64,000 nucleotides of DNA, taken from contig JAWADS010000001.1 of assembly GCA_038998625.1 (NCBI GenBank), positions 30,110 to 94,109 on the forward strand. The letters are read 5' to 3'. The stretch comes from Candidatus Aenigmatarchaeota archaeon (GTDB lineage Archaea; Aenigmatarchaeota; Aenigmatarchaeia; CG10238-14; SCSR01). This document shows positions 7,301 through 46,620 of this stretch, piece after piece (position 1 is the first letter of the stretch; every line of letters begins with the position of its first letter). Under the pieces are notes generated by a model. The model saw only the letters and a program-made list of their open reading frames with translations, had not been told where the DNA came from and did not search any database. The translations under genes were made by a program, and so were the position numbers.

Positions 7301-10300
7301 TTTTCCAAGTTATCGAAGGATGATATTCAATGGCTAAAATACATAGCGAATGAATATCGAAGGAGAACTGGAACAGAATTAGCTTTATCTACAATAAGTG
7401 AGCAATTGGAGGCGCACCCAGATTTAAAAGCATATTTTGAAAAACATTCTAATTTCCACAAGATTGGTACACAAAATATTGAAATGGTTCATAAAATTGA
7501 TGAAACAAAAGCTTTCAAAATTGCACTACTTAATGGTGAACAAGCCATAGGTGGTTTGGAGAGATCTCTAAAAAATCTTAAAAAAATGATATTTTTTGGC
7601 AATGAGTTAGATCTTCAAACTGGTTTTACATATAGATATTCTTTTAGATACGCTTCTAATATATATACAGAAATACGCAGAAGAGTGGATCTATGGGACA
7701 GTATTTTAGATAATCTGTTAAAAAGCGGTGAGATATCCCAAGAAATTTACAATTCTTATAAAAACATAATAAATAAAGTTTACGAAATAGGATTAACCAT
7801 TGAGCCAGGGAAGCCTATAAAGGATACTTTGAAAAAAATTGATGAAGCTTTAAAGTCAATAAAGAATGAAAAGAAGACATTATTTAAATTATTATCCTAT
7901 CAATCTAAAAAATTATCCATAGAGCCCAACACTGGGTTTAGTGAGGTCGCTAAAAATATAGAACCTACTAAATTACCTGAAAATATTGAAGAGTCCATAG
8001 AGAATTCTGCAATCGCTAAAGTAGCAAAAGAAGAAGCTGAAAAGGGCATAAAAGAAATTCCAAGTCAAGAAGAAATTCTACAAAAAATTGAAAGGGAACA
8101 AGAAAGATTAATATCAGAAACACCAAGAACGAGTTTTGAGCCTACTGCTCAAAAAATTGGTAAAGTAGATGAATTAACTTCCAAGATTGATAATTATATC
8201 CTATCTAGTAAAATAGCAGATTCGTTAACAACAGAAAATATTAGAAAATTGTTGGATGGAAAAGTAGTTTTTGTTGATGATAATTATTTGCTTGTATTAT
8301 CTCCAAAAGGTCAATTAACTTTAGTTCATTTTCCTGATAAAACGTTTTTATATTCTTCCGATGGAACTAAGGCTGTTATAAAAATGAGATCCACACCCTA
8401 CCTAACACCAGACGATTTAGATGAATTAATAAAAAAGAACATACCTATGGTTTATCCGAAATATAAGCTTCCCGATGAAGTTCTTGTAATAGGAATTGTG
8501 GATGGAAGGCCTGTTGAAAAACTTTATGATTTGAGAGAATTCAAAAAGTTTGTTGAAAATGAGGGAACGCCTTCAGCAAAAATATCAAGAGAATTTAGAG
8601 AAAAATTTAACTCTTATTTAGATTCTATTCGTGGAACAGAAGAAGAAGTTGTAAAAGCGTTAGATAAATTTTTCAATATGAAAGGGTTGCCGGAAAAATC
8701 TGATTTAACTATTGCGGCAGGCCCGGCAGTAAAAGTAAAACCCAAATTACTCAACATCGATGAAGATTATCTTCAATTCAGGTTAGGAATTTCTATTATT
8801 AATGCCGAGACGGCACAAAACGTACTTTCACCAATATATGCTATAAGGGACGATTTAGAAACTAATTTTAAGTTAATGGGAATAAAGACCCCTGATGACA
8901 TAGCAGATGGTATGACAATAAAAATAAAAGGAAGAGATTATGTTTTACGTAAATTACCTAATAACCAAATTTCTATCGAGCTTGCAGTTTTTCGTGAGGG
9001 TGATCCATCCCTTTTAGAATTCCAAAAAGTGGGCACATTTTATCTTGTTGATGGTGAAGTTAAAGATGCGTATTCATGGAATAGAGCGGTGGCTTCTACG
9101 TTCAAAGATGTAAAGGCTTCTCAAGACCTCAGGGATGGCAGATATATTCTGAATACAAATAATTACAAAATTGAAAAAATGGATTATGGCTCAGTAGTGT
9201 TTGAAAATAATAGGCCAGCTATTTTTAGTATTGTAGGGGCAAATAGGGAAACCATGTATGTACCTATTTCTATTGATAGATCGCAATTTTTGCAAAAAAC
9301 TTTCTCAGAAATCGGAACTGCTGGGATAGGAAAAGAATATGCATTCGGTTCAGACAATGGAGATGTCTATAGATTTACCAAAAGACATTGGGAACCCGAT
9401 TTAAAATGGGAAATGGAAGTTAATGGAAAACCGGCTGGATTTTTGACGGATGAAGGATTAAAAACAAAAATAAGAGAATTAGTGGGTTCTGGTTATAATC
9501 CATTAATTCCCGCTTATAGGTTTAGTCCAATCGATGTTGAAAAAGAAATAAGAGGACTTTCAGAGCCTTATTATTCTAAAACTTTCTCAAATGGTCAAGA
9601 AGCTTTCAGACTTAGAAATGTTGATGGTCGCATTATATTAGAGACAGGGGGGATGCAACCAAGAACAATAACTGTTGAAGAGGCTCGGTCACTTCTAGCA
9701 ACATCTAAAAGAGTAGAGATATTAAGCACAGATGGTGCTAATTTAATATCCCAAACATCTTTTTGGAAACAAATATCAAGGCCAGTAGGAATATTAACAA
9801 AAGATTTTTATCCTTTAGTTGGTCCGGCTGATTTTATTGCTTTTGGCGCTATAGCAGCATTTTCTCTTTATAGTATAACTGAAAATAGGGAAGAAATGAA
9901 TAGGAGAATTGTTTATAATACGGTTGAAAATTTTGCGGTCGAGCCTCTATTAGTTACAACAATTGCAAGGGGTTTAGGTCTGAGAGCAGCTTTCAGTGGC
10001 GCAAGGGCTGCTGTTGCGGGCGTAGGTGGCGCAATTACTCTAGGAATTTTAACGGCTGTAGTTGCTGCAGAAATGGTTGCAGAAGATACAATAGAAGAAT
10101 ATCTAAGAGGTAATAGGTTAAATGATATGGGTATACCTATACCTAATGATTTGGGGTCAGCTTTAGGTAGAGTTTTTGGAGGATATTGGGACTTTTTAAT
10201 AAATTCAAATAGTGAGCAAACTCTAGAGAGTAGCAGTATGTTTAATACAGTAGCTACATCCATTTATAAAGACTTATCTAATCAAGCATTAAAAAACTTT

Positions 10301-17126: not shown

Positions 17127-17246
17127 TGGGGTCGGAGGGATTCGAACCCTCGTTAACCGGTTGCTTCTTACTTCTCATAGCTCCATATACTGGAGCCGGT
17201 TTTCTAATCATGGAAGATGTCTTAGACCTAGCTAGACCACGACCCC
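17127..17246 (-). tRNA. tRNA-Trp(CCA) with two introns (~25/26: 17202-17218; 37/38: 17162-17189)
   Basis: GGGGTCG/CGACCCC acceptor stem, ACCGG/CCGGT anticodon stem, TTCGAAT T-loop; 75 nt after intron removal. Confidence 0.92.
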
Positions 17247-17347
17247 AGCCACCAGTGGGATTCGAACCCACAACCCCCTGATAACTTTCTGTCATTTTTC
17301 CAGTTATCAGGTACAAGTCAGGTGCTCTACCGTTGAGCTATGGTGGC
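17247..17347 (-). tRNA. tRNA-Thr(TGT) with 29-nt intron at 37/38 (17283-17311)
   Basis: GCCACCA/TGGTGGC acceptor stem, CCTGA/TCAGG anticodon stem, U73 discriminator. Confidence 0.92.
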
Positions 17348-22612: not shown

Positions 22613-23179
22613 ATGGTAGAAAAAGTTTGGGAAGGAGAATTAATTGAAAATAGAGTAATAATTTGGGATAGTCAAGCTGTTAATCTTTATGATGATTCTG
22701 GTTATGGTAAGCCCTTACCAGAGGACAAACCTGATAGAGTCGAATTAGATTTGGTGGAAGCCGCTTACTTATTAGAAAAAGGTAAGTTAAAAGTTTTTTT
22801 AAAGGAGGATAAGAAGAAAAGATATCTTAACTTTAATGAATTAATGGAAATAGGAGCAAAAAATATAAATCAGTTTCACCCTCAATTTATAGTTTTTCGC
22901 GACTTAAGAGAAAGAGGATATCTTGTTAAAACTGGTTATAAATTCGGTGCGCATTTTCGTGTTTATGATAGAGGAGTTAAATTGAAAAGAGGTCCAAAAG
23001 CTCCTCATGAACATACTAAATGGGTAGTGCATGCAGTACCAGAAGAGGCTGCCTTTTCATTACCTGAAATGTCTAGAGCAGTTAGATTAGCACACAATAT
23101 AAGAGCGACATTTTTATGGGCAGTTGTGGATAAAGAGTCAGATGTCACTTATTATCAAATAACTCGTGTCACACCTTAA
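22613..23179 (+). CDS. endA: tRNA-intron (splicing) endonuclease
   Basis: LDLVEAAYL, FRDLRERGYLVKTGYKFGAHFRVY, VDKESDVTYY. Confidence 0.95.
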   Translation: MVEKVWEGELIENRVIIWDSQAVNLYDDSGYGKPLPEDKPDRVELDLVEAAYLLEKGKLKVFLKEDKKKRYLNFNELMEIGAKNINQFHPQFIVFRDLRERGYLVKTGYKFGAHFRVYDRGVKLKRGPKAPHEHTKWVVHAVPEEAAFSLPEMSRAVRLAHNIRATFLWAVVDKESDVTYYQITRVTP

Positions 23180-34234: not shown

Positions 34235-34378
34235 TGCAGGGGGTGGGATTTGAACCCACGAAGGCACTAAGCCACGAGGTTTCTTATCTTCATCCTATCA
34301 GAGCTCAAGTAAACCTCTATCTTGAGCTTCGCGCAACTTTAAAATCTCGCGCCATTGACCAGGCTAGGCGACCCCTGC
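34235..34378 (-). tRNA. tRNA-Leu(CAA) with introns at 30/31 (34328-34345) and 37/38 (34281-34320)
   Basis: GCAGGGG/CCCCTGC acceptor stem, long variable arm, BHB cgcg-ag|a...cgcg-aa|g; 86 nt mature. Confidence 0.92.
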
Positions 34379-46210: not shown

Positions 46211-46453
46211 ATGGTAGCAAATGGAATGGAAGAACAATTATTAGTAGAGCTTTCTAAGAGGTTGGTGATGAAAAAAGATGAAATTATAAATTTTCTTCAG
46301 GATAAAGTTCCTAATGCTAAGCAAGTATATACACAATTGCTTCAAGATTTAATATCTAAAGGTTTTGTCAGGCATGTGGAACCTGTTGGAGAAAGTGTTG
46401 TAGCAATAACTCAGAAAGGAATGAAAGAAGTTAACGCAAAAATTTTTAAATAA
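46211..46453 (+). CDS. Small winged-helix protein
   Basis: L..L..KGFV...ITQKG wing motif. Confidence 0.65.
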   Translation: MVANGMEEQLLVELSKRLVMKKDEIINFLQDKVPNAKQVYTQLLQDLISKGFVRHVEPVGESVVAITQKGMKEVNAKIFK

Positions 46454-46474
46454 TTTTTATTAATTTGATTATAT

Positions 46475-46591
46475 AGCCCCGTCGTCTAGCGGCCAAGGAC
46501 GCGAGGCTTTGGATATTTTATCTAAAGCTCTGATTTGATTTCGATGAAGAGAAGAAACCTCGAAACCGCAGTTCGAATCTGCGCGGGGCTA
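46475..46591 (+). tRNA. tRNA-Gln(TTG) with 44-nt intron at 37/38 (46513-46556)
   Basis: AGCCCCG/CGGGGCT (A1-U72), CGAGG/CCTCG, BHB cttt-gg|a...gaag-aa|a; 73 nt mature. Confidence 0.93.
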
Positions 46592-46620
46592 TTTTTTTAT
46601 TTTTTGATAAAAATAATTAT

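Follow-up and report, generated by a model that had tools for sequence, protein, structure and literature searches.

A candidate single-K-loop, self-guiding box C/D-type module in the tRNA-Gln(UUG) intron of an Aenigmatarchaeota archaeon

Four box C/D sRNAs of Pyrococcus target position 34 of the tRNAs for Leu(CAA), Leu(UAA), Met and Trp, and the Trp guide alone is described as intronic (PMC7994747). In Sulfolobus acidocaldarius, U34 of tRNA-Gln(UUG) is a predicted C/D target, and Um34 is reported there (PMC7668247). The trans-acting Nm34 sRNAs of these organisms are described as free-standing, double-motif RNAs (PMC7994747, PMC7668247). The Trp guide of Euryarchaeota, as reported for Haloferax volcanii and for Pyrococcus (sR50), resides in the 37/38 intron and is directed at position 34 of its own tRNA, and its guide pairing competes with the BHB fold (PMC4090602, PMC7994747, PMC11408192). 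This intron is long, with a reported median of 65 nt (PMC4090602), and descriptions present it as a box C/D small RNA with two target sites, C34 and U39; in Haloferax, the guide of pre-tRNA-Trp is reported to be trans-acting (PMC4090602, PMC11408192). In reviews up to 2024, the only intron presented as guiding the modification of its own tRNA is that of tRNA-Trp (PMC4090602, PMC11408192). A non-Trp example from DPANN, the 66-nt intron in the Nanoarchaeum equitans elongator tRNA-Met, has been described as a stable RNA that contains boxes C and D together with a GC hairpin (PMC3491384). Archaeal single-motif 'hemi' C/D complexes have been engineered in vitro, where they are reported to need high salt and to lose site specificity, for which both motifs are required (PMC1635284).

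The 64,000-nt stretch of DNA analysed here (the window) contains a tRNA-Gln(UUG) gene whose 37/38 intron is likely to work as a minimal methylation guide of the box C/D type, directed at its own precursor. As with the euryarchaeal Trp guide, the module is located in a 37/38 intron, faces its own position 34 and pairs in competition with the BHB. It differs in having one D'/C' K-loop and one guide, in its distribution over up to seven tRNA species, and in the size of the introns, which measure 27–52 nt in the compared set. Relative to the N. equitans Met intron, the present modules are shorter, with an explicit antisense to position 34 and the order D'-loop-C'. The targets, the N+5 logic and the protein machinery are those of the trans-acting sRNAs, whereas here the guide appears to have moved into the intron of its own target and to have lost the terminal C/D motif. 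The engineered 'hemi' RNPs likewise combine one K-motif with one guide but are artificial; the cis-tethered target of the natural modules might supply the positioning that these complexes lack. A literature search, with subscription papers and bioRxiv supplements outside its scope, returned no prior description for Gln or for the single-K-loop form.

Anatomy of the tRNA-Gln(UUG) intron

The tRNA-Gln(UUG) gene is located at 46475–46591 on the forward strand, which also carries all features of the window listed below unless (-) is given. It matches the Rfam tRNA model over exactly this interval with 45.1 bits (E 9.2e-9) and a 47-nt insertion at the anticodon loop, and it has 29 intron-bearing orthologues. 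The cloverleaf was assigned by hand, with the acceptor stem AGCCCCG/CGGGGCU, the D arm GUCU/GGAC, the anticodon stem CGAGG/CCUCG and the T arm CGCAG/CUGCG. The 5' exon (46475–46512) and the 3' exon (46557–46591) flank a 44-nt intron at position 37/38 (46513–46556), such that the anticodon loop reads C32 U33 U34 U35 G36 G37, then the intron, then A38. An A/T-rich stretch (TTTTTAAATAA...) at 46436–46474 is a likely archaeal promoter region, and a T-run at 46592–46605 is a likely terminator, both judged from sequence only. Default ARAGORN and a gathering-mode Rfam scan did not detect the gene, and the intron mode of ARAGORN mislabels it as 'Stop(tta)'; introns with modules of this kind would explain why standard tRNA finders miss or mislabel such genes. 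The host genome comprises 469 kb in 19 contigs at 31.5% G+C, is 91.8% complete, and encodes an archaeal SRP RNA and many intron-laden tRNAs. Its tRNA-Gln(CUG), at G000:C9:~9484–9584 (-), has introns in the D and T regions and none at 37/38, and is without a guide module.

The intron is ordered as ATATTTTA-TCTAAAGCT-CTGA-TTTGATTTCG-ATGAAGA-GAAGAA. The antisense guide UCUAAAGCU occupies 46521–46529, with a conserved core at 46522–46528, and is directly followed by the CUGA box at 46530–46533. A 10-nt loop (46534–46543) leads to the AUGAAGA box at 46544–46550, and the intron ends with GAAG (46551–46554) and the bases of the 3' bulge. Upon rereading of the sequence, the guide, CTGA, ATGAAGA and the 44-nt intron were all found at the coordinates that the original prediction had assigned to them. 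By direct reading, the guide 5'-UCUAAAGCU-3' pairs with G30–A38 through two G.U pairs (G30.U46529 and G36.U46523), and the fifth base upstream of CTGA, A46525, is located opposite the wobble base U34 (46509), both as predicted. The target strand, G31–G37 of the anticodon arm (46506–46512), pairs with guide positions 2–8. A38 adjoins G37 only after splicing; the first intron base, A46513, is also an A, so the ninth guide pair is present before or after splicing. The intron thus has an N+5 antisense guide directly 5' of a D/D' box, as in box C/D sRNAs.

A canonical C/D K-turn contains a pair between C1 of CUGA and G6 of RUGAUGA, with U2 opposite U5 and sheared pairs at the two GA steps. Since box D precedes box C across a short loop in the Gln intron, the arrangement corresponds to an internal D'/C' K-loop rather than to a terminal C/D pair. 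The C' box of the Gln module departs from UGAUGA. Joined by the short loop, D' (CUGA) and C' (AUGAAGA) would form a K-loop closed by a C-G and a U-A pair, with G.A pairs in tandem and AU bulge bases; this is the kind of site at which L7Ae binding and then Nop5-fibrillarin assembly would be expected. Canonical archaeal C/D sRNAs also have a spacing of ~12 nt from C to D' and from C' to D. A second motif is absent: TGANGA was found 5' of the guide in 0/29 Gln genes, and CTGA was found within 50 nt 3' of C' in 4/29, the present gene not being among them. Consequently, the Gln module has the internal D'-loop-C' motif of archaeal box C/D sRNAs without their terminal K-turn of box C (RUGAUGA) and box D (CUGA), and, without a C box 5' or a D box 3', neither of the ~12-nt spacings occurs. 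It thus falls outside the canonical C/D sRNAs and resembles a natural 'half-mer' with a single D'/C' K-loop; on its sequence it is best filed as a putative intron-borne single-K-loop self-guide.

Chance occurrence was assessed by shuffling. Among 2,000,000 intron shuffles, 357 gave a module of the tested kind, defined by 7/7 pairs to 31–37 in the same register, NNGA, ATGA and a D'1:C'6 pair. A loose motif scan of this AT-rich genome gave 220 occurrences, which is background level (164–220 in shuffles), and a still looser rule gave 421 genome-wide against 222–291. A single sequence is therefore weak evidence, and for this reason the case rests on conservation and covariation.

Conservation and covariation of guide and boxes

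A DNA search for the Gln gene in 60 relatives and the host genome gave matches in 54/61 genomes. The 30 best-scoring loci, the present one included, were examined; because the best loci are similar over the whole gene, this sample leans towards intron-bearing copies. The guide, NNGA, a short loop and ATG(A/G) are retained in 29/30 of these loci, and the exception (L023) has a 27-nt intron without boxes. The conserved antisense stretch ends in ...AAGC(U/G). The D' box occurs as CUGA, UUGA, CAGA, CGGA or UCGA and once as CUAA, with its GA kept in 28/29 parsed introns. The C' box consists of AUGA (28/29; AUGG once) followed by three purine-rich bases. NNGA and AUGA separated by 3–10 nt were observed in 28/29 Gln introns, CTAA and ATGG each occurring once, and the intron sequence that flanks these elements varies freely. 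Whole-arm MAFFT alignments (A1, A4) shifted the C' box by three columns in short-loop rows; counts were therefore made on end-anchored pieces (A2, A3) and with a parser anchored only on ATG(A/G). A collection-wide pattern scan returned at least 120 stretches, with 2 true tRNA-Gln among the matches listed, and was useless for assessing spread.

Covariation was analysed in 66 modules (29 Gln, 16 Leu-CAA, 10 Leu-UAA, 9 Met and 2 Trp). Position 34 is located opposite guide base 5 in all 66, and the pair types track the anticodon. In alignment A3, pair 34:(5) is UA in 39 modules and CG in 26; pair 35:(6) is AU in 34, UA in 23, UG in 6 and CG in 2; and pair 36:(7) is AU in 27, GU in 19, GC in 10 and UA in 9. 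Pair 31:(2) is GC in 63 and AU in 2, the rare A31 being matched by a U at guide base 2. The guide-target covariation score is 0.448 compared with 0.184 in shuffled sets (0/500 reach 0.448). The 92.1% of paired positions is partly a product of construction, because the parser required pairs 32–36; the switch of pair types with the anticodon and the D'1:C'6 pair are free of this selection. The duplex proposed in the original prediction held for its 31–37 segment, which is conserved, whereas its ends did not hold generally, with G30 paired in 38/65 rows and A38 in 25/65.

The two boxes covary with each other, which gives comparative support to the D-type and C-type assignments. In alignment A2, for which sequence motifs alone served to anchor the row ends, D'1 and C'6 form a standard pair in 54/54 lettered cells (CG 29, UA 21, AU 2, UG 2), a count that leaves out ten distinct rows shifted three columns by MAFFT. 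D'2:C'5 is UA in 30, UG in 7, AU in 2, CG in 2, GC in 1 and another combination in 22, and the next two D':C' positions are not kept as pairs (32/54 and 18/54). The K-loop covariation score is 0.298, compared with 0.177±0.023 in shuffled sets (0/500 reach 0.298) and 0.08–0.21 in slid controls; the relatives behind it are not independent, and the TTGA/A6 state in Gln may be one event.

Two exclusive folds of the precursor

At the 37/38 junction, the intron and the anticodon loop form an archaeal BHB with a 4-bp central helix, 3-nt bulges and outer helices. C32–U35 pair with the four bases preceding the last two of the intron, here GAAG at 46551–46554, and this pairing is 4/4 in 27/30 orthologues. 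The bulges are G36 G37|i1 and NN|A38; the latter reads A-A|A38 here (46555–46557) and contains the 3' splice site. The outer helix is formed by intron bases 2–6 and the five bases preceding the central strand, with at least 4/5 pairs in 25/30. In the present gene, the intron 5' end (46513–46520) provides the 5' bulge base and the outer-helix strand 46514–46518, which pairs at 4/5 positions with one A.G mismatch. In the guide fold, by comparison, the same 5' end forms the hairpin loop and its extension. The 3' outer-helix strand is the C' box itself in 22/29 introns, the present one included. Since the C' box doubles as a BHB strand, the K-loop and the BHB cannot coexist; part of the conservation of the C' box and of the GAAG tail, both of which serve as BHB strands, is owed to splicing.

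Folding of the anticodon arm with its intron gave an MFE of -16.4 kcal/mol for a structure that comprises the guide hairpin (32–37 plus three intron bases) and a CUCU/AGAG stem closing the K-loop, compared with -8.9 kcal/mol for the BHB fold. Among the orthologues, the MFE structure has at least 5/6 guide pairs in 22/30 and the BHB central helix in 0/30; the mean difference is -2.7 kcal/mol, protein not counted. The competition between the guide hairpin and the BHB fold that had been proposed from the single sequence is thus backed by folding and by orthologue pairing. With its complementarity to its own anticodon loop and its exclusion of the BHB, the Gln element has the properties of an intron-borne self-guide of the Trp type.

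We infer protein binding, methyl transfer and the order of events from sequence, folds and gene presence. In the proposed mechanism, the unspliced RNA would adopt the guide fold by default, in which the 7–8 bases just 5' of D' pair with G31–G37 of the same molecule and place U34 opposite the fifth base. Fibrillarin would then produce Um34 on the unspliced precursor. Splicing would require refolding, in which C32–U35 pair with GAAG at the intron 3' end and the intron 5' end pairs with the C' box to form the BHB, which the endonuclease would cut after methylation. The mutual exclusion of the guide and splicing folds is the ground for this proposed order, methylation first and splicing second, and two conserved, mutually exclusive RNA folds could in this manner order modification ahead of splicing. 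The shortness of the duplex, 7–8 bp, speaks against a methylation guide.

The extent of the guide helix distinguishes action on the precursor from action after excision. In 38/54 testable modules (Gln 25/27; Leu-UAA 8/9), the partner of guide base 9 is the first intron base; base 38 of the mature tRNA is its partner in 25/65 (Leu-UAA 0/9). The guide helix therefore tracks the unspliced sequence, and this speaks for action on the precursor rather than for action of an excised circle. Moreover, the gap between target and guide is often 2–5 nt, which makes the cis hairpin the predicted MFE. These observations render it improbable that the excised intron, linear or circularised by RtcB, methylates the mature tRNA-Gln mainly in trans, although U46521 can pair with A38 to give nine contiguous pairs on the mature tRNA-Gln, RtcB is encoded in the genome, and trans action is reported for the Trp guide of Haloferax (PMC4090602, PMC11408192). 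Of the two routes named in the original prediction, methylation followed by splicing fits the extension of the duplex into the first intron base better than trans action of the excised circle does.

If the single-K-loop cis reading is true, either one K-motif suffices with a tethered substrate or two precursors pair on one Nop5 dimer. The modules would provide a natural test case for a requirement of two K-motifs in box C/D enzymes.

Carrier tRNAs, spread and machinery

A covariance model, R1, built on the module with 46 positions and 11 pairs, gave exactly four matches in the 469-kb host genome, in the genes for tRNA-Gln, Leu(CAA), Met and Leu(UAA), with 35.5–41.9 bits; the next match has only 15.4 bits, and the Leu(UAA) gene was detected though absent from the training set. 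The tRNA-Leu(CAA) gene at 34235–34378 (-) in the window, which scores 37.2 bits, has two introns: the one near 30/31 measures ~18 nt, and the one at 37/38, of 40 nt, contains the module. Its target (34327–34321, with C34 at 34324) is faced by the guide CUUGAGCU (34309–34302), which is followed by D' CUGA (34301–34298), a loop (34297–34294) and C' AUGAAGA (34293–34287), all (-). ARAGORN labels this gene as 'Lys(ttt)'. Outside the window, tRNA-Leu(UAA) (G000:C4:18722–18874) has a CAGA...AUGAAGA module at 37/38 plus a long first intron, and the elongator tRNA-Met(CAU) (G000:C13:1784–1899) has a UUGA...AUGAUAA module at 37/38.

Among relatives, the module occurs in 26/30 fetched Leu loci, 9/10 Met loci and 2/2 Trp loci; the Leu and Met loci without it are L161, L168, L173, L186 and L194. 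The Trp search, run at a strict 1e-8, gave only the two relatives G015 and G024. In the window, tRNA-Trp(CCA) at 17127–17246 (-) has two introns, and its 37/38 intron contains an antisense UGGAGC and one AUGA box (17185–17175), with no second box and no R1 match; given the full Trp modules in G015 and G024, this copy looks decayed. Modules were also observed in relatives in tRNA-Lys(UUU) (L223, L233, L249, L247 and L242) and in tRNA-Glu(UUC) (L240 and L236), and no Lys(UUU) or Glu(UUC) module match was found in the host genome. The putative self-guiding principle is general in this class of tiny archaea, a 30–50-nt cassette serving Gln, Leu, Met and Trp and, in relatives, Lys and Glu. The carriers have the anticodons UUG, UAA, CAA, CAU, CCA, UUU and UUC; each of them decodes a purine-ending split box (Gln, Leu-UUR, Met, Trp, Lys or Glu) and has position 34 at N+5. 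Two further tRNAs with CTGA...ATGA/TGAT-type strings were rejected as modules, having no room for a guide and no R1 match: tRNA-Thr(UGU) at 17247–17347 (-) in the window, in whose 37/38 intron the bases pair as an ordinary CUG/CAG helix, and tRNA-Arg(UCU) at G000:C2:45544–45674, which apparently has three introns.

Methylation is preferred over a purely structural role chiefly because of the identity of the carriers, whose set coincides with the known guided Nm34 sites. In such a structural role, the K-loop would be only an L7Ae-binding or folding device that shields the anticodon loop and either helps splicing or sets its timing, with no methyl transfer. The doubling of the C' box as a BHB strand and the exclusive folds agree with a device of this kind, a single K-motif is reported to be a poor methylation platform in vitro (PMC1635284), and L7Ae is reported to bind many K-turn RNAs besides C/D guides (PMC5539422). 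We nevertheless consider it unlikely, for it leaves unexplained that the antisense always abuts D' with position 34 at N+5 and that the carriers are tRNAs with a known or predicted C/D target at position 34 elsewhere.

At E<=1e-3, R1 matches were found in 75/151 genomes of the class, representing 22/31 families, with at most 8 per genome, and in all 31 sampled genomes of the host's own family. The phylum-level sample drew same-class genomes only and adds nothing beyond the class. The Gln, Leu and Met introns share GCU-(C/U)UGA...AUGA...AAGAA|A, which fits common descent and would also be expected if homologous introns had spread among tRNA genes and inherited their boxes without a present function. 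Such a relic is very improbable, as compensatory changes maintain both helices across 22/31 families and the guide is re-tuned to each anticodon while the flanking intron sequence varies freely. On the preferred reading, that of a cis-acting methylation guide, tRNA introns gain a concrete selective reason to persist.

The proteins that such a guide would use are encoded in the genome: fibrillarin (239.6 bits), Nop5 (229.2 bits) and L7Ae (108.9 bits). The catalytic domain of the tRNA-splicing endonuclease (PF01974, 90.4 bits) is located in the window at 22874–23152 (G000:C1:52983–53261). RtcB, at G000:C12:6941–9724 (-), is found in two pieces (profile 1–51 and 49–426) located ~1.4 kb apart in one 985-aa frame, and the split looks like an intein-type insertion. 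For a canonical double-motif C/D sRNA, a strict regular expression gave 0 matches in the host genome and 0 in shuffles, and looser patterns remained at background. RF00095 (snoPyro_CD) gave no match in the host genome, and all control archaea were also below its cut-off.

Elp3 (TIGR01211) was not found in the host genome, which is 91.8% complete, and the sole match to ATP_bind_3 (NcsA/TtuA-type) scores 19.9 bits against a cut-off of 27 bits; the principal wobble-U modification remaining might be ribose methylation. A wider reading is conceivable but rather doubtful: natural single-K-loop cis guides would constitute a methylate-then-splice switch and would have replaced the free-standing sRNAs for every wobble Nm34 site in this class, in up to seven tRNAs, and where genomes are most reduced they may act as the chief guides of fibrillarin and may provide the only wobble-U chemistry left. 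A further tRNA of the host genome, at G000:C2:1322–1425 (-), has two introns and the anticodon loop CTTATAA (UAU, Ile), which suggests that AUA codons are decoded by a UAU tRNA and not by a CAU tRNA carrying agmatidine.
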